Shown piece by piece: positions 2,786-28,541 of a DNA stretch of 32,000 nt (position 1 is the first letter of the stretch; each line of letters begins with the position of its first letter). Both the position numbers and the translations under genes were made by a program. Below the pieces are notes generated by a model that searched no databases, was not told where the DNA came from, and saw nothing but the letters and a program-made list of their open reading frames with translations. The DNA lies in NCBI GenBank assembly GCA_934098505.1, contig CAKOOR010000004.1, positions 1 to 32,000 on the forward strand, given 5' to 3'. Origin of the DNA: an uncultured Bacilli bacterium. GTDB taxonomy: Bacteria; Bacillota_I; Bacilli_A; RF39; UBA660.

Positions 2786-3013
2786 TAGAAAAATAGATAT
2801 CTATCTTTAATATATAATATAACTATAGCATATAATTAGGTTAAATTAAAGAGTTTTTATGATGTTATTATAGTCAAAATTCCCGTCAATTAAATTTTTC
2901 TTTTTATTAGGTTTTATCAGTCTTTATTTAACTTTTTGTAGTCAATTAATTAAAATCTTTTCTGGTCAAAAAATGTAGTCAAACTAGCTTTAAACTTAGT
3001 AAATACCTACTAT

Positions 3014-3078: not shown

Positions 3079-4323
3079 ATGAAAAGATTTAATAAAGATA
3101 AGTATTTAAGAAGATTAAAATTAAAACGTATGTTGTCTAATAACTCAAGAAAAATCTATATTATTTTATTATGCCTATTATGTTTTATTATAGGTATCTA
3201 CTTTGCTCATTCTAATTTTTTTGTAAGTGAGGATCAAGAAATAATAAGAACGACAGTAGGAGATTTTACTCAAGGTGATGTCGTAATTGGTGCTTATATA
3301 GAAGGCGAGAGTTATAATCAAATTCCTGCTAAGGGTGATGGCTACGAGGCAACTAAAGTAGTATGTGATAATAATGCCAATGGGACTTGGGATAACGACA
3401 ACTGGCGAATTATAATTGACAATTTGACCATAAAAACTAAATGCAATATTTATTTTGAGTTTAAATCTAGTTATGAATTTGAATATACCGGTAATATTCA
3501 AGAATTTACAGTTCCCAAAACCGGTATTTATAAATTAGAAGTTTGGGGTGCCCAGGGAAGTGCTATATCTTCTAATACAGTGGAAAGTGGATATGGCGGT
3601 TATTCAAGTGGCTTAATAAGTTTAGCTAAAGGTAATAATATTTTTGTTGTAGTTGGTGGTCAAGGCGCAACGATTAGCAATTATTCGACAAATTATAGTG
3701 GCGGTTACAATGGTGGTGGCAATTCGCTTACAAATTCAGATACATTATGGGGAGCTGGCGGCGGCGCTACCTCAATTCAAAATATCTTAATAAATGATGG
3801 GTTACTAAAAAATTATGAAGAAAGCAAGGACAATATTTTAATAGTAGCTGGCGGTGGTGGTGGTTTTGGAACATTTCAAAGTAATAAAAATACAGGTGGC
3901 TCTGGCGGCGGTTACGTAGGTAATAATGGTACATCAAGCAATAGTTCATATGGCGTTGGTGGTAATCAATCTAGCGGTGGTCATGCAACTAATTCAATGT
4001 ATCAAGACCAATCGATTAATTCAGGAAGTTTTGGCTTGGGTGGAAATGGTAATTTAAATACTAGGACAGGTGGAACCGGTGGCGGCGGCGGTTATTATGG
4101 TGGTTCATCAAGTTATGATTACGGCAGTAGTGCTGGTGGTGGCTCTGGCTACATAGGAAACTCATTATTAAATAATAAAATCATGTATTGTTATAACTGC
4201 AACGAATCTAGTGAAACCGATATTAAAACCGTATCTACTACCTGTAATGAAGAAACCCCAACCGAAAATTGTGCAAAAAAAGGCAATGGTTATGCTAAAA
4301 TAACTTATATTGAAGAAAATTAA
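3079..4323 (+). CDS. Membrane-anchored glycine-rich protein (bacterial Gly_rich / ALK-LTK glycine-rich-domain type), paralog 1
   Basis: 414 aa. N-terminal TM anchor IYIILLCLLCFIIGIYFA. Family-typical entry motif YTGNIQEFTVPKTGIYKLEVWGAQG followed by GG-rich repeats (GGYNGGG, AGGGGGFG, GGTGGGGGYYGG, AGGGSGYIG). Cys-containing C-terminal module MYCYNCNESSETD..CNEETPTENC. Confidence 0.85.
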   Translation: MKRFNKDKYLRRLKLKRMLSNNSRKIYIILLCLLCFIIGIYFAHSNFFVSEDQEIIRTTVGDFTQGDVVIGAYIEGESYNQIPAKGDGYEATKVVCDNNANGTWDNDNWRIIIDNLTIKTKCNIYFEFKSSYEFEYTGNIQEFTVPKTGIYKLEVWGAQGSAISSNTVESGYGGYSSGLISLAKGNNIFVVVGGQGATISNYSTNYSGGYNGGGNSLTNSDTLWGAGGGATSIQNILINDGLLKNYEESKDNILIVAGGGGGFGTFQSNKNTGGSGGGYVGNNGTSSNSSYGVGGNQSSGGHATNSMYQDQSINSGSFGLGGNGNLNTRTGGTGGGGGYYGGSSSYDYGSSAGGGSGYIGNSLLNNKIMYCYNCNESSETDIKTVSTTCNEETPTENCAKKGNGYAKITYIEEN

Positions 4324-4336
4324 TATTAAAATAAAT

Positions 4337-4371
4337 AGACAGAAATATCTAAAAAGAATTCTGTCTTTTTA
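4337..4371 (+). terminator. Rho-independent terminator of paralog 1
   Basis: AGACAGAA ... TTCTGTCT (8-bp perfect stem) followed by TTTT. Confidence 0.6.
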
Positions 4372-4414
4372 GTATCCTTAAATAATTGTTACTTTTGGTA
4401 TTAAAGATAAAAAA

Positions 4415-4440
4415 TTCATAGAGTATATAACTCTATGAAA
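4415..4440. repeat. Recombinase-core-site-like repeat, locus B left
   Basis: TTCATAGAG-TATATAA-CTCTATGAAA. It is the perfect 26/26 reverse complement of 4669..4694. Confidence 0.8.
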
Positions 4441-4668
4441 ACTATTTTTCAGTATCTATTTTTAACTTATATTACAAATATACCATATAATTAGGATTAA
4501 TTAAAGAGTTTTTAATAAACTATTATAGTCAAAATTGTAGTCATTTAATTTTAGGCTTTTTCTAGATATTATAGGACTCTAAAGCTATTTTTAATTTCAA
4601 AGAACTATTAACTTTTATGGTCAAAAAATGTAGTCAAGTTGGCTTTTAATCTAGTAAATACCTACTAT

Positions 4669-4694
4669 TTTCATAGAGTTATATACTCTATGAA
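4669..4694. repeat. Recombinase-core-site-like repeat, locus B right (inverted)
   Basis: TTTCATAGAG-TTATATA-CTCTATGAA. It lies 38 nt upstream of the ATG at 4733. Confidence 0.8.
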
Positions 4695-4732
4695 ACCATA
4701 ATTAAGGGTATTTTTACTAACGGAGGTTAAAA

Positions 4733-5935
4733 ATGAAGAAATTTAATAAAGATAAGTATTTAAGAAGATTAAAATTAAAGCGTATGTTGTCTAATAACTC
4801 AAGAAAAATTTATATTATTTTATTATGTCTATCATGTTTTATTATAGGTATCTATTTTGCTCATTCTAAGTTTTTTGTAAGTGAAGATCAAGAAATAATA
4901 AGAACGACAGTAGGCGATTTTACCCAAGGTGATGTTATAATTGGTGCTTATATTGACGGAAAAAGTAATAATAAAATTCCTGCTAAAAGTGATGGTTACG
5001 AGGCAACTAAAGTAGTATGTGATAATAATGCCAATGGTACATGGGATAACGAAAGTTGGCAAATTATAATTGATAATTTGACCATAAAAACTAAATGCAA
5101 TATTTATTTTGTTTCTAAAAATGAATATTCCTACACTGGCTATGAAGAAATTTTTACAGCTTATAAAACTGGAACTTATAAGTTAGAGGTCTGGGGTGCT
5201 CAGGGTGGTGGTACAACAACTTATCAAGGTGGCACTGGTGCTTATAGTACGGGTATTGCTTATTTAGAAAGTGGTAATAAATTATATATCAATGTCGGTG
5301 GCTCTGGCACGATAAACACATCAACAAGCAGTAGTTTTAGTTATTTAACTGGTGGTTATAATGGCGGTGGTAATAGTACAGTCGGTGGAGATCCAAATAA
5401 CTACGCTGCTGGTGGTGGTTCTGGTGGCGGTGCCACGCATATAGCCAAAGTTTCCGGTCTTTTATCGACTTTGGAAAATAATAAAGACGATATTATAATT
5501 GTTGCCGCTGGCGGCGGTGGTGCTGATACTAACTCTTATGATAGCAGTCTTTCTCATAGCGGGACTAATGGTAGTGGCATTAGTAGTTCTACTACAGCAG
5601 GCCAAAAAAATTCATGTACCATTGCCACCCAAACTACTGGTTATAGCTTTGGCCAAGGCGGTAATTATACCTCCAAGACTCATGGCGCCGGTGGCGGTGG
5701 TAGTGGCTTTTATGGCGGCGGTGGTGGCGGTATGAACGGCCCAGGATGCGGTGGTTCAAGCTACATCGGCAATTCTTTATTAAGTGATAAAGCTATGTAC
5801 TGTTATAACTGTACCGAATCTAGTGAAACTGATACAAAAACCGTATCTACTACCTGTAATGAAGAAACACCAACCGAAAATTGTGCTAAAAAAGGCAATG
5901 GTTATGCTAAAATAACGTTTATAAAAGAAAATTAA
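4733..5935 (+). CDS. Membrane-anchored glycine-rich protein (Gly_rich / ALK-type), paralog 2
   Basis: 400 aa. The first ~127 aa and last ~55 aa are nearly identical to paralog 1 (MK[RK]FNKDKYLRRLKLKRMLSNNSRKIYIILLCL... and ...YIGNSLL..K.MYCYNC.ESSETD.KTVSTTCNEETPTENCAKKGNGYAKIT). The central Gly-rich region is divergent. Motif YKLEVWGAQGGG is present. Confidence 0.85.
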   Translation: MKKFNKDKYLRRLKLKRMLSNNSRKIYIILLCLSCFIIGIYFAHSKFFVSEDQEIIRTTVGDFTQGDVIIGAYIDGKSNNKIPAKSDGYEATKVVCDNNANGTWDNESWQIIIDNLTIKTKCNIYFVSKNEYSYTGYEEIFTAYKTGTYKLEVWGAQGGGTTTYQGGTGAYSTGIAYLESGNKLYINVGGSGTINTSTSSSFSYLTGGYNGGGNSTVGGDPNNYAAGGGSGGGATHIAKVSGLLSTLENNKDDIIIVAAGGGGADTNSYDSSLSHSGTNGSGISSSTTAGQKNSCTIATQTTGYSFGQGGNYTSKTHGAGGGGSGFYGGGGGGMNGPGCGGSSYIGNSLLSDKAMYCYNCTESSETDTKTVSTTCNEETPTENCAKKGNGYAKITFIKEN

Positions 5936-6249: not shown

Positions 6250-7785
6250 ATGACAAAGAAAAATATAATATTTATAAGTGTATCTTTAATACTACTTATG
6301 TTATTAGGAATAGGAGTATCCTATTCTATGTGGATTTTGACTGTAAGTCAAACTGGGGTTAATACGGCTTATTCTAAGTGTTTTGATTTAAGTATAACTA
6401 ATAAAGAAAATAATATTTCATTAGAAAATGCTTATCCTATTACTAATGAAAAGGGTAAGAGCTTAACACCTTTTACTTTTACAATAACTAATACTTGTGA
6501 TATTAATGCTAGTTATAATATTAATTTAGAAAGTTTAAATGGTACTACTTTAAAAGCTGATTATCTAGATATAATGTTAGATAGTAATGAACCTAAGAGA
6601 TTAAATAGTTATTCTACTGCTACTTTAGTTAATAATGATAGTATTGATTCTAGAAACTTAACTAGTGGTATTTTAGATAGTGGTAAGTCTAAAAGTTTTT
6701 CTCTTCGTATTTGGATAGATTATAATACGACTTTAGCTGATTTAGAGAATTCTACTAAGTTATTTAAAGGTAAAATAATTGTAGTTGGTACTCCTACTAA
6801 TGAGTCTGAACCAATAATTAATAAGATTATTTCTCAGTTAGATACTTCTGGTAAGTGTCCAACGGTAAATGAAGATGGTTCGGTAAATGTAACTGGTGTT
6901 GAGGCAACAGATGGTTACTTATGTAAAGCCAAAGATGCTTATGGTGATTCCTATTATTATCGTGGTAATGTAACAAATAACTATGTGAAGTTTGCTGATA
7001 AATATTGGCGAATTGTTCGTATTAATGGTGATGGAACTGTTCGTGTTATTTATGATGGTACAAGTGCCCATACCAATGGAGAGTCAAGTAGTGATCGTCA
7101 AATTGGTACTAGTGCGTTTAATAGTAGTTATAATGATAATGCTTATGTTGGTTATATGTATGGTGCCACTGGTGCCTCAACGTATGCAGCAGCTCATGCA
7201 AATACCAATGATTCAACAATCAAAACTTACATAGATAATTGGTATAAAACGAATATTTTAGGAACTGCCAATGAACAATATTTGGCTGATAATGTTTTTT
7301 GTAATGATCGTTCAATAAGTACGTATACCACAAGTTCAAATACAAAACTGGGTTATGGAACTAATTCAACATATTATAGATGGGCATATGGTCCATGGAA
7401 CGGTACAAACTATGGTAATATGAAAATGATGTTAACATGTCCACAACAAAATGATGCCTTTACAGTAAGTGATACTACTAATGGTAATGGGGCTTTAACG
7501 TATCCAATAGGCCTTTTGAGTACAGACGAAATAGCACTAGCCGGTGGATGGAACGAAGAAAATAGTGGTTATTACCTATACTCTGGGCAAGCTTGGTGGG
7601 CTTCCTCGCCGTACTACTTCGGTGGTAACTACGCTAGCGTGCGTCGCGTGGATTCGGGTGGCTATGCGAACCACAGCAACAACGTGGGCGACGCTCGCGG
7701 GGTTCGGCCAGTTTTCAATCTGAAGGCTGATACACTGGCACAAGGCTCAGGGACAGCATCTGACCCATATCGCATTTCTTCGTAG
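6250..7785 (+). CDS. Membrane-anchored surface protein with C-terminal DUF6273-like (WW..SP ... GVRP) ligand-binding-type module
   Basis: 511 aa, RBS AAAGGAG. N-terminal anchor IIFISVSLILLMLLGIGVSY. The C-terminal ~280 aa carry the ordered motifs YWRIVRINGDGTVRVIYDG, YIDNWY, LLSTDEIALAGG, AWWASSP and GVRPVFNL. The name DUF6273 is from memory and has not been verified. Confidence 0.8.
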   Translation: MTKKNIIFISVSLILLMLLGIGVSYSMWILTVSQTGVNTAYSKCFDLSITNKENNISLENAYPITNEKGKSLTPFTFTITNTCDINASYNINLESLNGTTLKADYLDIMLDSNEPKRLNSYSTATLVNNDSIDSRNLTSGILDSGKSKSFSLRIWIDYNTTLADLENSTKLFKGKIIVVGTPTNESEPIINKIISQLDTSGKCPTVNEDGSVNVTGVEATDGYLCKAKDAYGDSYYYRGNVTNNYVKFADKYWRIVRINGDGTVRVIYDGTSAHTNGESSSDRQIGTSAFNSSYNDNAYVGYMYGATGASTYAAAHANTNDSTIKTYIDNWYKTNILGTANEQYLADNVFCNDRSISTYTTSSNTKLGYGTNSTYYRWAYGPWNGTNYGNMKMMLTCPQQNDAFTVSDTTNGNGALTYPIGLLSTDEIALAGGWNEENSGYYLYSGQAWWASSPYYFGGNYASVRRVDSGGYANHSNNVGDARGVRPVFNLKADTLAQGSGTASDPYRISS

Positions 7786-11446: not shown

Positions 11447-11497
11447 TATTTTGCTTTTTATTATGAAAAAATTAATTATATTTAAAATATAACTATT

Positions 11498-11541
11498 TTC
11501 ATTGAACAAAACTGCCGTAAACGGCAAAAAAGTTCAATGAA
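11498..11541. repeat. 44-bp nested-palindrome repeat, copy 1
   Basis: TTCATTGAAC-AAAA-CTGCCGT-AA-ACGGCA-AAAAA-GTTCAATGAA. The outer 10-bp arms and the inner 6-bp arms are both self-complementary. Confidence 0.75.
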
Positions 11542-11585
11542 ACATTGATTTTAACAAAAAAAGACTATATAATGACTATATAAAG

Positions 11586-11628
11586 TTATTGAACAAAACT
11601 GCCACAAACGGCAAAAAAGTTCAATGAA
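11586..11628. repeat. Nested-palindrome repeat, copy 2 (slightly degenerate)
   Basis: TTATTGAACAAAACTGCCACAAACGGCAAAAAAGTTCAATGAA. Same element as copy 1 with a 1-nt deletion in the left arm and GT to AC in the inner stem. It ends 18 nt before the ATG at 11647. Confidence 0.7.
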
Positions 11629-11646
11629 AGGAAAGAGGAACTTATA

Positions 11647-12894
11647 ATGAATGAAAAAATAATAGAAAGAAATGATTACTTAAATAAAATAATTGCTCGC
11701 AAAGGTAATGGTTTAATTAAAATAATAACCGGTATTAGAAGATGTGGAAAATCTTTTATACTTAATAACATTTTTTATAATCACTTAATAAGTACTGGTA
11801 TCAAATCTGACCATATTATTAAATTAGCTTTAGATAGAGCTGAAAATATAGAGTATCATGACGCTAAAAAATTAAATGAATATATTTTGTCACAAATTAA
11901 AGATGATAACATGTATTATGTATTAATCGATGAAATTCAGTTAGCAGCTGGGTTTGAATTTGTTTTAAATGGCTTATTATACGAAAAAAACATTGATGTT
12001 TATGTTACTGGAAGTAATTCTAGATTTCTATCGAGCGATATAATTACAGAATTTAGAGGTCGTGGCGATGAAATCAGAATATATCCATTATCCTTTGCTG
12101 AATTTGTTAATGCTTATGATGGCAATAGATATGAGGCTTGGAATGAGTACGTAACTTATGGTGGCATGCCTTTAATATTGAAGCAGAAAACAGACGAACA
12201 AAAGAGTAAATATTTAACAAGTTTATACGATTTAACATATAAAAAAGATATAATCGATAGAAATAATATTGATAAACCAGATGTTCTTGATACTTTAATA
12301 AACATTTTAGCTTCCTCAGTTGGATCTTTAACCAATCCCCAAAAAATTTACAATACTTTTATAAGTAATGGTATCACAGATATTGCCAAAAATACGGTTA
12401 TTTCATATATGGATTATTTATTAGATTCATTCTTAATAGAAAAGGCTGAAAGATACGATGTTAAAGGTAAAAAATATATCCAGACTCCTCAAAAATATTA
12501 TTTTGCTGATATTGGTCTTCGTAATGCAAAGTTGAATTTTAGACAACAAGAAGAAAATCACTTAATGGAAAATATAATTTACAATGAATTATTAATTAGA
12601 GGTTATAATGTTGATGTAGGTGTAGTTGAAGTAAGAGAAGCTGATACAAGAAAACAGTTAGAAGTCGATTTTGTTTGTAACCAAGGCAATAAAAGATATT
12701 ATATTCAATCAGCCCTAAATCTAGATACTCCAGAAAAAACTCTTCAAGAAACTAAGTCCTTAAATAATATTGGTGATAATTTTAAAAAAATAGTTGTTGT
12801 TAAAGATAACATTAAACTATGGCGCAATGACGATGGAATTTTAATAATAGGAATTCAAGAATTTTTATTAAATAAAAATAGTTTAGATTTGTAA
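11647..12894 (+). CDS. AAA_14 / DUF4143-type ATP-binding protein (COG1373-like)
   Basis: 415 aa. Walker A GIRRCGKSF and Walker B YVLIDEIQ. The C-terminal region (YYFADIGLRN..., ...VDFV...) is typical of this widespread uncharacterised ATPase family. Confidence 0.8.
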   Translation: MNEKIIERNDYLNKIIARKGNGLIKIITGIRRCGKSFILNNIFYNHLISTGIKSDHIIKLALDRAENIEYHDAKKLNEYILSQIKDDNMYYVLIDEIQLAAGFEFVLNGLLYEKNIDVYVTGSNSRFLSSDIITEFRGRGDEIRIYPLSFAEFVNAYDGNRYEAWNEYVTYGGMPLILKQKTDEQKSKYLTSLYDLTYKKDIIDRNNIDKPDVLDTLINILASSVGSLTNPQKIYNTFISNGITDIAKNTVISYMDYLLDSFLIEKAERYDVKGKKYIQTPQKYYFADIGLRNAKLNFRQQEENHLMENIIYNELLIRGYNVDVGVVEVREADTRKQLEVDFVCNQGNKRYYIQSALNLDTPEKTLQETKSLNNIGDNFKKIVVVKDNIKLWRNDDGILIIGIQEFLLNKNSLDL

Positions 12895-12939
12895 AAAGGT
12901 CATAATATTTAAGATATAACTGTTTTCATTAAACTTATA

Positions 12940-13053
12940 ATGAATGAAAAAATAATAGAAAGAAATGATTACTTAAATAAAATAATTGCTCGCAAAGGTA
13001 CTAGTTTAATTAAAATAATAACCGGTATTAGAAAAAAATTGGGAAAGTACTAA
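12940..13053 (+). pseudogene. Decayed duplicate of the 5' end of the 11647..12894 ATPase gene
   Basis: 12940..13035 repeats 11647..11742 almost base for base (ATGAATGAAAAAATAATAGAAAGAAATGATTACTTAAATAAAATAATTGCTCGCAAAGGTA...). It then degenerates and stops after 37 codons (MNEKIIERNDYLNKIIARKGTSLIKIITGIRKKLGKY*). The Walker A motif is destroyed. The upstream ATATAACTGTTTTCATTAAAC also matches 11486..11507. Confidence 0.75.
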
Positions 13054-14201: not shown

Positions 14202-16181
14202 ATGTCAGATTTTACATTTTTAAATAAAGAACAAGTATTTGGAGAACATCAATTATCCGTTCTAAAAAAGTATGGAGTAAAGGCAGTTCTAACGGATTTT
14301 TCTAATCTTCTTGGTGGTTTTTATGTTGGTACTAAACATTATGGTGTTTACTGGTTAAAGGATTTAACCGATGATAAGGTAGCCGTAGTTAATTATGGTG
14401 GTTCATTAAGACATGAGGCTGATAATGTAAAAAGTATCGCTGCCCGTATAGTATTACCAATAAACAACGATATAGAAAATTCTATTACAGAAAAAGGAAA
14501 ACTATTATTTTGTGAGCCTTCTAATTGTAATCCTTCTAATAGGCCTCTGGTTGTAAAAGAAGTAGAATATGGTTTTTATCCTCAGATGGCCGTATCAAAC
14601 GAACTACAAGAAAAATTAGAAGCGGAATATAAGACCTCTAATTTAAAGGTTAGCCACAACAGTTATACAGTAGACAAAAACCATTTTTTAACGAAAGACA
14701 AGGCCTTTTCGCCTTTAGCAATTCCTGAATATATATATGAAAACAAATATTATGTGAGAGTTATAAATTCTTCTTGGCCTTATACTACCTTAAATGATGG
14801 TAGAGAAGTAAAAAATGACGATTTTGTTTGGCTTGAAGTAAGTCCTGTTGAGTGGTTAATTGATAAAGAGTCTAATCTTTTAATAAGTAAATATTTATTG
14901 TTTTCTAATATCAGCTATTCATATGCTAAAAATGATAAAGATAATTTTGAAAAAACAGGTATTAAATGGTATTTAGATAATATTTGGTCTAAAGAACTAA
15001 TGCGAATATTTCAGATTAATCCGGTTAGTCCTATTATAAATAAAGAGCCTATTATAGATAAAGAGCCTAAAGAGCCTATTATAAATAAAGAGCCTAAAAA
15101 GTTACAAAAGGAACCTAACCCTTATAATTTTGATTTTTCTAAAGTAAGGGAAGAAGATATTATTAAAGGGGCTATCCAAAGTAATGTTGCAGTCTTCTTA
15201 CACGGCCGAAGTAGTGATGGTAAATCAAGTAGAGTAAAACAACTAGACCCTGATTGCATAATTCTTTACTTAAGAAATGCTACTCCAGATAGTCTAAATG
15301 GTAAATCTGTTTATAATGAAAATACTGGTGAAATGATTGATGTTCCCCCAACTTGGTATAAAAAATTACAAGAAAAATGCGAAAAAGAGCCTGATAAAAT
15401 TCATCTTGTTTTCTTTGATGAATTAACTAATGCCTTGCCAAGTATTCAAGGTATGGCATTCAATATTATTTTAGATGGTGAAGTAAATGGTATCTGGAAA
15501 CTACCTAAAAACGCGAGAGTTGTTGCGGCCGGCAATGACTTGAATGATTCTTTGGCTGCGAACGAAATGGCTGAACCATTATTTAACCGCTTTGCTCATG
15601 TTTATTTCAACACAACTACTAATGACTGGTTAAAGTGGGCCTCAATGGATAGTAAAGATTATCAAACTCTATCTTATAGTTCTAAAGAAAATCCTATGAA
15701 AATTCATCCGGCTATCTATGCCTTTATTTCTTATGAACGCTCCTATGAACATAATATTTTAAGAACACCATTTGACGGTAAAACACCAAATGCTGACCCT
15801 AGAAAATGGGAGATGGCTTCTAGAGTTTTATATCAAACCGGTAAACCTGAAATGTTAAGAGCCTTGATTGGGTGGAAATTAACCAAAAAATTTATTGCAT
15901 TCTGTAAAGAAAAGGCCGTATGTTATCACGATATTATAACTAAGACCTGGAATATTGAAGACGTTGCCGATGCTGAATTAAACATTACCGAAAAATATGC
16001 CACTACCGTAAGTTTGGCTTTGCAAACCAAAGAAGAAGATTTAGAAGTCGTTAGAAACTTTATTGAGTGTTTTGGGCAAGAATTCTTATCAATGTTTGAT
16101 GCTATCTGGAGTTACAACAATAAAGAAAGATTAGAAACACTTAATAATCTAAAATTAGCAAAAGCCAAAAAGACTGAATAA
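14202..16181 (+). CDS. MoxR-like (AAA_5-type) AAA+ ATPase with N-terminal DUF6273-like sensor-type domain, copy 1
   Basis: 659 aa. Core motifs: Walker A HGRSSDGKSS (GxxxxGKS), Walker B LVFFDELTNA, sensor-1-like VVAAGND, and LFNRFAHVY (Arg finger region). This follows the MoxR/AAA_5 pattern DE..N..p..q......il.........lp.n.r..a..N........l...l.nRF. The N-terminal 270 aa carry the motifs FTFL..E, LTDFS.LLGG, YWLKD, ARIVLPI, YGFYPQ, VEWLID and IKWYLDNIW. Confidence 0.85.
   Translation: MSDFTFLNKEQVFGEHQLSVLKKYGVKAVLTDFSNLLGGFYVGTKHYGVYWLKDLTDDKVAVVNYGGSLRHEADNVKSIAARIVLPINNDIENSITEKGKLLFCEPSNCNPSNRPLVVKEVEYGFYPQMAVSNELQEKLEAEYKTSNLKVSHNSYTVDKNHFLTKDKAFSPLAIPEYIYENKYYVRVINSSWPYTTLNDGREVKNDDFVWLEVSPVEWLIDKESNLLISKYLLFSNISYSYAKNDKDNFEKTGIKWYLDNIWSKELMRIFQINPVSPIINKEPIIDKEPKEPIINKEPKKLQKEPNPYNFDFSKVREEDIIKGAIQSNVAVFLHGRSSDGKSSRVKQLDPDCIILYLRNATPDSLNGKSVYNENTGEMIDVPPTWYKKLQEKCEKEPDKIHLVFFDELTNALPSIQGMAFNIILDGEVNGIWKLPKNARVVAAGNDLNDSLAANEMAEPLFNRFAHVYFNTTTNDWLKWASMDSKDYQTLSYSSKENPMKIHPAIYAFISYERSYEHNILRTPFDGKTPNADPRKWEMASRVLYQTGKPEMLRALIGWKLTKKFIAFCKEKAVCYHDIITKTWNIEDVADAELNITEKYATTVSLALQTKEEDLEVVRNFIECFGQEFLSMFDAIWSYNNKERLETLNNLKLAKAKKTE
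15030..15101 (+). repeat. In-frame tandem repeat (18-bp unit CCTATTATARATAAAGAG, 3 full copies plus 9-bp partial copies) in the inter-domain linker
   Basis: Full units at 15030..15047, 15048..15065 and 15075..15092. Partial CCTAAAGAG at 15066..15074 and CCTAAAAAG at 15093..15101. Encodes PIINKE-PIIDKE-PKE-PIINKE-PKK. Confidence 0.85.
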
Positions 16182-18143: not shown

Positions 18144-18163
18144 AAAGAAAAGAGTTGAAAAAA

Positions 18164-20071
18164 ATGAATGATTTTACTTTTATAACTGGCGAAGATGCTT
18201 TTGGCGATGATGATCAAGCATTGGAAATCTTTAAAGTAGCTGGTACTAAATCACCATTAACTGATTATTCTATTATTTTAGGGGCTTATTATGATCCTGA
18301 ATCTAAATTAAGTTATGGCTCTTATTGGACTAAATCAACAGTTAGTAGTAATAAAAATGTTATCATTGTTGATGAAGAAGGCTATTCGGCAACTTATAGT
18401 ATTTGTCTGCGAGATATTGGGGCTAGAGTTGTTTATAATTTACCTGAAAATATTGAAAAGGAATTAACTAAAAATCTGGATACAACTACTGAACATATTT
18501 TTCAAGTAAAATACGGTTATTATCCTCAATCTGCCTTAAATAGGCTAGAACAAAAGAATTTAGATAATATGCTAAAGCAAGGTAAATTGCAATTAACCAA
18601 TAATTGTTATACTGCTGATTCTAGAAAGGATGGCGAAGATGATGAAATTTTTGCTCCTATTACTTTTAAAGAATACAAATTAGAGGATAAAAGATTAATA
18701 AAAGCCGTTGCCAATACAGCCTTGTATAATGGGTTTAAGTCCAAGTATAAAAATGGCGATAGTATTTGGGTTAATGTAGAACCAGTTTATTGGTTACTTG
18801 ATACTAAAAAGCATCAAATGATAAGTGGAAAAATTTTATTCGCTGGTGTTCAATTTGCTGATAATCCCAGTTTTACTAAGTTTGAAGAAACTAGAATTTA
18901 TCAATTTTTAAATACTTGTTTTGCTAGAGAATTAGTCCAAGGCTTAGATGAAAAATTGCTGCCTATAAAAGAAGAAGCTTCTATTAAAGATACTAAATTT
19001 TCAAATTTATATAATTTTGATTTTTCTAAAGTAAGTGAAGAAGACATTATTAAAGGGGCTATCCAAAGTAATGTTTCTGTCTTTTTACATGGCAGGAGTA
19101 GTGATGGCAAATCAAGTAGAGTAAAGCAACTAGATCCTGATTGCATAATTATTTACTTAAGAAATGCTACTCCGGACAGCCTAAATGGCAAAAGTGTCTA
19201 TAATGCCAGTACTGGTGAAATGATTGATGTACCACCAACTTGGTATAAAAAATTACAAGAAAAGTGTGAAAAAGAACCTAATAAACTTCACATTGTTTTC
19301 TTTGATGAATTAACTAATGCTCTACCTAGTATTCAAGGCATGGCTTTTAATATCATTTTGGATGGCGAAGTAAATGGTATCTGGAAACTCCCGGAAAATG
19401 CAAGAATTGTTGCGGCTGGCAATGACTTGGATGATTCCTTGGCTGCCAATGAAATGGCTGAACCCTTATTCAATCGCTTTGCTCATGTATATATTGATAC
19501 AACTGTTGATGATTGGTTAGATTGGGCAATGACTCCAGATAAAAATTATGAAGCATTAGATTATCAAAAACAAGAAAATTCTTTTAAAATCCATCCAGCT
19601 ATCTATGCTTATATTGCTTATAATGAGGCGATTGATAAATACGTTTTAAGAACTCGTTATGATGGGAAAAAACCTAATGCTGATCCTAGAAAATGGGAAA
19701 TGGCTTCTAAAGTATTATATCAAACTGGCAAGCCAGAAATGTTAAGGGCTTTAATTGGCGAAGATTTAACTAGGGATTTTATTGCTTTCTGCACCCAGAA
19801 AGTGCTAAGTATCGAAGATGTTTTAAATGAAAACTACTCTGAAGAAGACTTAAAAATGGACACTTCTAAGAAATATATTACTATTGTTAATTTATCCTTA
19901 GTAGATGAAGAAAATGTTGAAGTAATAAGAGATTTTGTAGCAAAATTAGGTAAGGAATTATTAGCCACTTTTTATTTATTGTGGACGCGTGGTAATGAAA
20001 CCAGATTAGAAAAAATAGCTGAATTAAAATTAGCTGGCAATCCTTTAAAATTACTAAAATCAAAAGACTAG
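18164..20071 (+). CDS. MoxR-like (AAA_5-type) AAA+ ATPase with divergent N-terminal DUF6273-like domain, copy 2
   Basis: The ORF track opens at TTG 18155. I prefer ATG 18164 because MNDFTFITGEDAFG then aligns with MSDFTFLNKEQVFG of copy 1. It has the same Walker A/B, sensor and Arg motifs as copy 1. The N-terminal domain carries YWTKS, GARVVYNL, YGYYPQ, VYWLLD. Confidence 0.85.
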   Translation: MNDFTFITGEDAFGDDDQALEIFKVAGTKSPLTDYSIILGAYYDPESKLSYGSYWTKSTVSSNKNVIIVDEEGYSATYSICLRDIGARVVYNLPENIEKELTKNLDTTTEHIFQVKYGYYPQSALNRLEQKNLDNMLKQGKLQLTNNCYTADSRKDGEDDEIFAPITFKEYKLEDKRLIKAVANTALYNGFKSKYKNGDSIWVNVEPVYWLLDTKKHQMISGKILFAGVQFADNPSFTKFEETRIYQFLNTCFARELVQGLDEKLLPIKEEASIKDTKFSNLYNFDFSKVSEEDIIKGAIQSNVSVFLHGRSSDGKSSRVKQLDPDCIIIYLRNATPDSLNGKSVYNASTGEMIDVPPTWYKKLQEKCEKEPNKLHIVFFDELTNALPSIQGMAFNIILDGEVNGIWKLPENARIVAAGNDLDDSLAANEMAEPLFNRFAHVYIDTTVDDWLDWAMTPDKNYEALDYQKQENSFKIHPAIYAYIAYNEAIDKYVLRTRYDGKKPNADPRKWEMASKVLYQTGKPEMLRALIGEDLTRDFIAFCTQKVLSIEDVLNENYSEEDLKMDTSKKYITIVNLSLVDEENVEVIRDFVAKLGKELLATFYLLWTRGNETRLEKIAELKLAGNPLKLLKSKD

Positions 20072-26931: not shown

Positions 26932-27008
26932 GCACCCATAGCGCAATTGGATAGAGCGTTAGACTACGGATCTAAAGGTTAGGGGTTCGACTCCCTTTGG
27001 GCGCACCA
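26932..27008 (+). tRNA. tRNA-Arg (anticodon ACG)
   Basis: Hand-folded cloverleaf. Anticodon stem TTAGA/TCTAA, loop CTACGGA, T loop TTCGACT, encoded CCA. Two stem mismatches are noted (A3-C70 and G12-A23). Confidence 0.85.
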
Positions 27009-27015
27009 CGTATTT

Positions 27016-27092
27016 CGGGAAGTAGCACAGCTTGGTAGTGCACCTGGTTTGGGACCAGGGGGTCGCAGGTTCGAATCCTGTCTTCCCGACCA
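27016..27092 (+). tRNA. tRNA-Pro (anticodon TGG)
   Basis: Hand-folded cloverleaf. Acceptor CGGGAAG/CTTCCCG, D stem GCAC/GTGC, anticodon stem CCTGG/CCAGG with loop TTTGGGA, T loop TTCGAAT, encoded CCA. Confidence 0.92.
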
Positions 27093-27791: not shown

Positions 27792-28541
27792 CTATATATT
27801 ACTTATGTCTATTTTAGTGAATAGCTTATTTATATTTTTTTCATCAATTTCAAATGTGGTTCCCTTATCTTGGATTTTTCCATATTTTTCCTGAGAAGTA
27901 TAAAAAGAAATCTTCATATTTATTCCAATATCACCAGTGGAAATTAAATCTAAAAAGCAATCAAAACTTCTTAATTTGTATAATTTAAAATTATGATATT
28001 TAAAATAAACATCATCTTTATATTTCTTCTTTTCTACTGGAATTAAAGCCAAATAATTTAGTTTCATATTTAAACGATTTTCCAATTGTTCAAAAGACCA
28101 AGAAATATTTTTATTGATATAATTTGTATACCTGTTTTTAACAACCAACCATATTTTTTTATGAACTTTATCAACTTCTAATTTAAATTCTTTAAATAAG
28201 CCAATTTTGGTAAATTTATTACCGTAAATTTTGCCAAAAAATACTTTATACTTTCGATCTTTCCTACTAGGCCAACCATATCGAATTAAAATTTCTTTAA
28301 GCGCTAGTGGTCTATTATCAGGAACCATTGAGAAAAGGCCAATATGAGGTTCACTATATAAAAATTTAGTTTTTAACTCGATTCCATAATAATCAGCAAT
28401 AATTAAATTATCATCTTCTTTACCTAACAAATTTTCTAACATTTTACCAGCGGCACTTGTACCTTTTTCTGTATTTTTAATCCAATTTTTACATTGAATT
28501 TTATAAAACTCTATTTTTAATTTTTTAATATTATCATTCAT
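27792..28541 (-). CDS. PD-(D/E)xK nuclease of the MvaI/BcnI-MutH-Sau3AI type (putative type II restriction endonuclease)
   Basis: 249 aa. RBS AGGAGG. GTSAAGKMLENLLGKEDDNLIIADYYGIELKTK gives D50-x4-E55-x-K57. This is the same spacing as the D-x4-E-x-K catalytic triad I recall for BcnI, and the G..G...E.llG.......D..giELK pattern is shared with MutH. Size is similar to BcnI and MvaI. Confidence 0.6.
   Translation of the reverse strand: MNDNIKKLKIEFYKIQCKNWIKNTEKGTSAAGKMLENLLGKEDDNLIIADYYGIELKTKFLYSEPHIGLFSMVPDNRPLALKEILIRYGWPSRKDRKYKVFFGKIYGNKFTKIGLFKEFKLEVDKVHKKIWLVVKNRYTNYINKNISWSFEQLENRLNMKLNYLALIPVEKKKYKDDVYFKYHNFKLYKLRSFDCFLDLISTGDIGINMKISFYTSQEKYGKIQDKGTTFEIDEKNINKLFTKIDISNI

Follow-up and report, generated by a model that had tools for sequence, protein, structure and literature searches.

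In the 32-kb window (the whole 32,000-nucleotide stretch of DNA that we analysed), two loci, A and B, precede two genes for glycine-rich proteins. We put the probability at roughly 85% that both are invertible promoter cassettes (invertons) of a genome-wide family, flipped by a tyrosine recombinase.

According to the mechanism we propose, each end of a cassette is a lox/FRT-like core, in which 9–10-bp inverted arms flank an asymmetric spacer of 7 bp and would be bound by a recombinase dimer. A 355-aa recombinase of the Tn916/Tn1549 type, encoded elsewhere in the genome, would pair the two sites of one cassette and exchange strands within the 7-bp spacer, a step that would require matching spacers. 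Because of such a requirement, partner spacers would be reverse-complementary and a change in one would be matched in the other; since spacers differ between cassettes, one enzyme could flip each of at least 20 cassettes separately. One outward-directed extended −10 promoter, about 62 nt from one cassette end, would, once flipped toward the gene, drive its transcription with a leader of about 95 nt. When it faces away, as in A and B of the window, its transcript would meet the distal site hairpin and U-run, and the gene would be silent.

Paired sites with matching spacers

The window has a G+C content of about 29%, and the standard bacterial code reads cleanly in it. We found four exact matches to TTCATAGAG-N7-CTCTATGAA, starting at 2760, 3015, 4415 and 4670, compared with 0 expected from 100 shuffles; allowing up to 2 mismatches revealed no further sites in the window. 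The four sites form two pairs with a start-to-start distance of 255 bp in each, just as the original prediction had it for the arms and spacing of both loci. The sites and the genes that follow them are:

2760 to 2784, no strand assigned: distal core site of locus A, with spacer CATATAA
3015 to 3039, no strand assigned: gene-proximal core site of locus A, with spacer TTATATG
3079 to 4323, plus strand: gene 1, downstream of locus A, coding for a 414-aa paralog with a PF12810 glycine-rich domain
4415 to 4439, no strand assigned: distal core site of locus B, TTCATAGAG + TATATAA (4424–4430) + CTCTATGAA
4670 to 4694, no strand assigned: gene-proximal core site of locus B, TTCATAGAG + TTATATA (4679–4685) + CTCTATGAA, its spacer being the reverse complement of the distal one
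4733 to 5935, plus strand: gene 2, downstream of locus B, coding for 400 aa with a PF12810 glycine-rich domain; ribosome-binding site GGAGG at 4722–4726

TTCATAGAG and CTCTATGAA are exact reverse complements, so each site consists of two inverted arms around an asymmetric spacer. A spacer of 7 nt cannot be palindromic, and none is. Locus A differs from locus B at a single spacer position, altered on both partners. The earlier claim that partner spacers are reverse-complementary and that the A/B difference is compensated was therefore exact in both loci. Two of its measurements need adjustment. In locus B the perfect inverted repeat covers 27 nt (4415–4441 and 4668–4694, 100% complementary), and the interior of 228 bp that had been given applies only to arms of 26 nt; there are 230 bp between the 25-bp cores and 226 bp between the 27-nt arms. 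Likewise, a distance of 38 nt from site to ATG, given for both loci, is correct for B but is 39 nt in A.

The intergenic regions of A and B are 82% identical overall, and their interiors only about 76–77%. With such divergence the duplication must lie far back, and A and B are tandem paralogs that have drifted apart rather than a recent copy. The sites of both loci have evidently been kept intact since then.

Both gene products have a basic N-terminus, one hydrophobic helix and the PF12810 domain. Gene 2 belongs to a cluster of 137 paralogs among the 561 open reading frames near sites. Members sampled from this cluster begin with a membrane anchor or a signal-like helix, and their extracellular parts vary; among these are PF12810 glycine-rich domains, DUF6273-like ends and regions without a known family. 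The window holds one more paralog of switch-linked genes in relatives (80–88% DNA matches in L060, L076, L052 and L027): a 511-aa gene at 6250–7785 with a weak DUF6273-like end and no TTCATAGAG site upstream.

We then turned to other genomes, one per species, counting pairs among the matches listed. More than 110 stretches carry the site, nearly all of them in 12 related uncultured Bacilli genomes, which include Hadza gut MAGs, Mycoplasma sp. CAG:956 and Tenericutes UMGS735; the few matches outside these are lone chance matches. A phage origin of the sites was rejected, as a collection of 2.9 million viral contigs gave only 2 lone matches.

With exact arms, the matches listed contain 58 pairs with a spacing of 252–266 bp, and the spacers are reverse-complementary in 57 of them. 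The original prediction had proposed that partner spacers always co-vary as a result of strand exchange, and the comparison of the 12 genomes came out as predicted. With up to one mismatch per arm, spacers are exactly reverse-complementary in 92 of the 94 pairs listed (the partners differ in the remaining 2), while shuffling partners among the 94 gave a mean of 4.2 complementary pairs and a maximum of 12. A compensated change can also be seen at an orthologous locus, where L074 has TTAAAAA/TTTTTAA and L011, L085 and L065 have TTGAAAA/TTTTCAA. To judge by these pairs, partner sites share their spacer as a homology requirement would demand, and we infer that the crossover would take place inside it.

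The spacers of the family fall into at least 22 classes, with variation at each of the seven positions. Genome CAKOMH has at least 20 pairs in at least 15 classes, and CAKOSN at least 24 pairs in at least 19 classes. In some genomes two or three switches share one spacer, so spacer identity cannot be the sole insulation between switches. The idea that differing spacers keep the switches independent agrees with the 19 classes among the 24 pairs listed for CAKOSN, but the duplicate spacers in some genomes limit it.

Farther along the window we noted several other repeats and genes. At 11466–11629, two tandem 77-nt copies with a strong hairpin (TTGAACAAAACTGCC..GGCAAAAAAGTTCAA) precede a gene for an AAA_14/DUF4143 ATPase. 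A 102-nt stretch at 11639–11740 is repeated with 98% identity at 12932–13033, 1293 bp downstream. Two large paralogous genes without a Pfam match (14202–16181 and 18155–20071, 3887 bp apart) are up to 90% identical in parts, and their relatives in the MAG CAKOSN (L070) lie near switches. Two adjacent tRNA genes at 26932–27089 are followed by a minus-strand gene for an MvaI/BcnI-family restriction endonuclease (27792–28541).

Putative promoter, terminator-like features and direct repeats of the cassette

For the analysis of orientation, we used 46 pairs, including both window loci, in which exactly one gene starts 9–98 nt outside one of the sites. All 46 cassettes carry a conserved extended −10 element, TRTG-N-TAnnnT, at 61–63 nt from the nearer site's outer edge, and in all 46 it points outward through that site. 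The block presumably combines the Gram-positive "−16" TRTG motif with a −10 box. Its variation is limited to N and the inner −10 positions (TATATT in 26, TATAGT in 11 and TAAAAT in 7), which is where real −10 boxes vary. At the −35-like position the family has TTTAAA, TAGAAA or TTTTAA. The elements of the two window loci are:

2821 to 2831, minus strand: extended −10 of locus A, TATG-C-TATAGT
4477 to 4487, minus strand: extended −10 of locus B, TATG-G-TATATT (TRTG at 4487–4484, hexamer at 4482–4477), facing away from the gene and through the distal site
4500 to 4505, minus strand: weak −35-like hexamer TTTAAT of locus B, 17 nt upstream of the −10

The promoter within the segment would face the gene in one orientation only. 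In 43 of the 46 cassettes, both window loci among them, it faces away from the gene, and in the other 3 (L051, L076 and L081) the cassette is turned the other way. With the conserved promoter directed away from the glycine-rich gene at both loci, A and B are, as assembled, probably OFF.

Both loci also contain a plus-strand TTAACT-18-TATAAT (4462–4491 in B and 2807–2836 in A). It scores 10/12 in a consensus scan at both loci and has a perfect TATAAT as its −10. Were this the working promoter, the window orientation would be ON, with transcription crossing the cassette into the gene and a leader of about 240 nt. We regard this as unlikely, as promoter-like matches in the region number 11 compared with 13.8 in shuffles, and the 18-nt spacer comes without a TG extension. 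TATAAT at that position is not kept in the other 44 cassettes, whereas the opposite-strand element is universal in the set; we therefore rejected TTAACT-18-TATAAT as the family promoter. Moreover, it is the flipped state that would yield a conventional leader of about 95 nt.

In the same 46 pairs, the spacer position beside the inner arm is always A or T, and a C or G at a spacer end position always adjoins the outer arm (8/8, relatives and window). This placement gives the sites a polarity that inversion cannot alter.

If A and B are OFF in the assembled orientation, their leftward transcripts would run into the distal site, where we noticed features resembling terminators:

4337 to 4370, plus strand: terminator-like hairpin that ends the upstream glycine-rich gene, AGACAGAA...TTCTGTCT followed by TTTT, found by eye
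4409 to 4414, minus strand: T-run right after the distal site hairpin of locus B, a 10-bp hairpin followed by UUUUUUAUCU

The first was missed by a simple scan because its loop exceeds 8 nt; being terminator-like, it would insulate switch B from read-through. The distal hairpin of B together with its T-run looks like an intrinsic terminator for leftward cassette transcripts. At both window loci, the distal site read on the minus strand has the G+C-containing hairpin and U-run of an intrinsic terminator; among relatives such a T-run is present on the distal side in 14/46 and on the gene side in 0/46. The terminator is a secondary role and does not account for the covariation or the inversions.

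Additionally, each cassette has about five copies of TnT(A/G)GTCAAA on a single strand, arranged as two tandem pairs with a 12–13-bp period and one single copy. In the 46 cassettes, GTCA occurs 222 times on one strand and 7 times on the other. In the window the repeats are located as follows:

2871 to 2984, plus strand: GTCA direct repeats of locus A, at 2871, 2883, 2939, 2963 and 2976
4526 to 4546, plus strand: tandem direct-repeat pair of locus B, TAGTCAAAA and TAGTCATTT, with a 12-bp period; candidate arm-type sites
4618 to 4639, plus strand: second tandem pair of the same repeat in locus B, TGGTCAAAA and TAGTCAAGT, with a 13-bp period

The five TAGTCAAA repeats could be binding sites for the N-terminal domain of the recombinase or for another accessory protein. 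Two other candidate features were dropped. Of the 46 cassettes, only 7 have an internal inverted repeat (AGGTGAA/TTCACCT) that was first seen by eye. Nor does the gene-side outer flank mirror the promoter-side inner flank, as it would if the ON state formed a long palindrome (identity 5.0/12, against 4.4/12 in the control).

Inverted and deleted forms and the adjoining recombinase gene

When loci with matching flanks were compared pairwise, the interiors had the same relative orientation in 103 cases and the opposite one in 7. The discordant interiors belong to three orthologous groups: L051 versus L011/L065/L074/L085, L021 versus L081, and L022 versus L110. Their flanks are 89–96% identical in the same orientation, except for one flank at 79.5%, and their interiors are 84–92% identical as the reverse complement only (about 64% otherwise).

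Inversion was also observed within one species, in ten contigs from ten samples that encode an identical recombinase protein (P0121) and carry the same adjoining switch. This switch is flipped in L159 and L160 relative to the other eight (L161–L168). L159 equals L161 once positions 1017–1305 are reverse-complemented, and the flanks, both sites and both spacers are unchanged. Judged by its sequence, such an exact inversion is the expected product of a crossover inside the spacers. The original prediction would have failed had only deletions and never inversions been found; precise inversions occur both between orthologous loci and within a species. In addition, a site forms the exact end of at least 15 contigs (six bearing the recombinase gene and at least 9 MAG contigs), the usual mark of mixed orientation in the sampled population.

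These observations bear on the notion that the sites are static hairpins, operators or a left-right RNA or DNA helix, in which the compensated base preserves pairing and no recombination takes place. Each site does fold as a 10–12-bp hairpin, with a U-run after the distal one, and a 27-nt helix between left and right arms would likewise predict the C..G versus T..A change. Nevertheless, we find this notion extremely improbable, as precise site-bounded inversions between and within species and the breaking of contigs at sites speak against it. A helix would have no need of an internal palindrome in each arm, and a conserved promoter between the arms means that the two would not be on one transcript. 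Nor does the covariation call for any purely structural role. Rfam covariance models match no family here, and only the two tRNAs of the window reach the gathering score.

Besides the two orientations, a third state exists in which a single site is left and the cassette is missing (L142, L143 and eight contigs of another lineage). These "empty" forms lie beside the recombinase gene (L142 and L143; L149, L151–L155, L157 and L158), and the spacer they retain comes from the gene-side site, fused to the arm and flank of the recombinase side. Slippage between the directly repeated arms might produce such forms, and so might an aberrant action of the recombinase.

For the family, both orientations with breakpoints at the repeats exist, while A and B of the window are seen in one. 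Nine same-strain contigs from several samples, which encode exactly both window proteins, all have A and B in the window orientation with 100% identity, and none has either locus flipped. After inversion the junctions of B would read ...GATACTGAAAAATAGTT-TTCATAGAGTTATATACTCTATGAA-ACCATAATTAAGG and ...GATAAAAAA-TTCATAGAGTATATAACTCTATGAA-AATAGTAGGTATTTACTAG. A search of JGI metagenome contigs for the right junction of B in any orientation gave 0 matches and is uninformative on flipping.

The uniformity of the nine contigs would also fit a situation in which the family is real and A and B of this strain are locked relics, their genes fixed in one state; degraded forms in relatives (single sites without a cassette and the two pairs with mismatched spacers) point the same way. 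We consider this distinctly improbable. The sites of B are perfect over 27 nt despite an interior divergence of about 23% since the duplication, and neither locus has lost its exact spacer complementarity, its promoter motif or its GTCA repeats. Furthermore, consensus assemblies give the majority orientation only, and 43/46 relatives are in the same majority state. A and B themselves would, we infer, still flip.

As for the enzyme, the window holds no recombinase gene; its sole mobile-DNA enzyme is an IS30-family transposase:

5 to 1206: IS30-family insertion sequence, with the transposase at 106–1152 (HTH_38 and rve) and imperfect terminal inverted repeats TATAAATTGAAA..AAGTGTCCG

In all same-strain contigs this element lies between the rplQ-side genes and the switch region. 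Among species genomes, CAKOSN comes nearest to the window, with 93% identity over 2.2 kb. To find the recombinase gene of the window strain, we inspected contigs carrying four variants of the enzyme, and none could be tied to that strain.

A motif screen of the 561 open reading frames around sites picked out a 355-aa tyrosine recombinase in L001 and L100, which matches PF00589 and PF14659. In both loci its gene is divergent from, and directly adjacent to, a switch. Orthologs share 59–97% identity, and the next relatives about 51%. A site lies 161 or 195 nt before the recombinase ATG in 39 of 41 contigs, representing four protein variants; in the two exceptions, L150 and L156, the adjacent switch is 259 nt from the gene. 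Between the recombinase gene and the switch lie a terminator hairpin and the TGCTATAAT promoter of the gene itself. On the chromosome it is accompanied by RmuC, RNase J and a gene of about 560 aa, a housekeeping setting rather than that of a prophage or mobile element.

We noted some variation at this locus. A more distant ortholog, P0003 (74% identity, L120–L127), has no TTCATAGAG site within about 5 kb; downstream, the synteny of the unnamed gene, RmuC and RNase J is kept, and BacA stands upstream in place of the switch. In L129, L130, L131, L135, L150 and L156, the same or nearly the same recombinase adjoins different family genes and switches. Strains thus seem to gain, lose or swap switches together with their genes, as whole modules.

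The closest solved structure to the recombinase is Tn1549 Int, with E = 1e-15 over the catalytic domain; NCBIfam models of tyrosine-type DNA invertases match far below the cut-off. The N-terminal 59 residues were modelled as three strands and a helix (pLDDT 88). The best Foldseek match of this model is 1BB8, the N-terminal domain of Tn916 Int, and is not significant (E = 1.2, TM 0.39). For the N-terminus of the closest ortholog, the best Pfam match is PF02920, the Tn916 Int DNA-binding domain, below the cut-off at E = 0.058. A profile search of the N-terminus against PDB sequences returned nothing relevant, only a spurious pilin match. Going by the model, the recombinase may have an extra N-terminal DNA-binding domain.

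The position of this gene suggests that the 355-aa recombinase would catalyse the inversion. A serine invertase of the Hin/Gin/Mpi type or the IS30-family transposase might be proposed in its place, since Hin-type sites are also about 26 bp long with inverted half-sites and the IS30-like gene is 1.6 kb from locus A. We attach very little credence to either. Spacer covariation spans all 7 positions, not a 2-bp core, and the motif screen, crude as it was, revealed no serine invertase among the 561 open reading frames, whereas the tyrosine recombinase was found beside sites. The IS30 transposase was rejected as the invertase on account of its terminal repeats (TATAAATTGAAA...GTGTCCG), which are unrelated to the sites.

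More tentatively, the enzyme may be a heterobivalent integrase that runs at least 20 switches, each addressed twice, by a private 7-bp spacer and by arm-type TAGTCAAA repeats inside the cassette. The spacer would confine strand exchange to its own partner. The arm-type repeats would recruit the N-terminal domain and favour pairing of a cassette's own ends. Exchange between switches with like spacers, or single-site deletion, would shuffle or retire cassette-gene modules, which would account for the strain-to-strain differences beside the recombinase gene. We hold this extension to be possible, though clearly less probable than the inverton reading itself.

Comparison with known switches and significance

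Phase-variable promoters are well known from Bacteroides, E. coli, C. difficile and mycoplasmas. Cre/loxP and FLP/FRT use inverted recombinase arms around a short asymmetric spacer that sets the orientation; lox and FRT partners need matching spacers, and sites with different spacers do not cross-react, as in engineered heterospecific lox variants. The core sites described here are built in the same way, and the covariation data fit the spacer-matching rule. They differ from loxP in size (arms of 9–10 bp and a 7-bp spacer, versus 13 + 8 bp), in that their spacer variety is natural and used within one genome, and in that the enzyme is no relative of Cre or FLP.

In E. coli fimS, the promoter lies on an invertible segment of about 300 bp between inverted repeats, with adjacent FimB/FimE tyrosine recombinases and internal accessory sites. 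The fimS switch stands alone; its 9-bp repeats have no dyad of the lox type, its recombinases have about 200 aa, and IHF and Lrp serve as accessory factors. Like fimS, the present family places a putative promoter on a short invertible segment between inverted repeats; unlike it, there are at least 20 switches per genome, dyad sites of the lox type and a 355-aa enzyme.

Mpi of Bacteroides fragilis is a serine recombinase, and RecV of Clostridioides difficile acts on about seven switches with dissimilar repeats. In both cases, one recombinase serves many dispersed switches for surface structures (PMC2268961, PMC7446863, PMC9286219). In the present family, by contrast, the arms are identical at all switches, the spacer alone differs, and a genome has at least 20 of them.

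As summarised in PMC2268961, the Mycoplasma penetrans mpl (P35) genes are surface lipoprotein genes scattered over the chromosome, each with its own invertible promoter and switched ON and OFF independently, and the proposed invertases are tyrosine recombinases encoded near some mpl genes. The likeness lies in the many surface-protein genes of the present family, each with a short, probable promoter cassette of its own that can invert. The enzyme differs, being a 355-aa integrase of the Tn916/Tn1549 type that may have, according to the model, an additional DNA-binding domain at its N-terminus. The cassettes of M. penetrans have a length of about 135 bp and 12-bp repeats; here they measure 230–240 bp, with lox-like sites of 25–27 bp and five internal direct repeats. 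The present host, moreover, reads its genes in the standard code, and membrane anchors are found at the N-terminus of its proteins.

With heterobivalent integrases of the Tn916, Tn1549 and lambda type, the enzyme shares a catalytic domain nearest to Tn1549 Int, and the repeated motifs near the cores could be arm sites. In contrast to the Tn916 and Tn1549 integrases, it is encoded in a housekeeping neighbourhood, and it is proposed to invert a resident cassette rather than to integrate or excise DNA. We searched the literature on this motif, on the lineage and in inverton surveys and found no description of this switch family. From known switches it differs by the use of identical arms with private spacers, the Tn916/Tn1549-type enzyme and the repeated internal motifs.

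One practical consequence is that metagenome assemblies of this lineage fragment at the switch sites. In addition, nature supplies here at least 22 mutually distinct spacers, set on identical arms and, as proposed, served by a single recombinase. Should they prove orthogonal in practice, they would offer a toolkit for multiplexed DNA memory or switch design. Double-addressed switches, if they exist, would parallel in nature the orthogonal lox arrays that have been engineered. For the organisms themselves, an uncultured, reduced-genome lineage of human gut Bacilli, the switches would provide a large combinatorial repertoire of surface proteins, which bears on immune and phage evasion.
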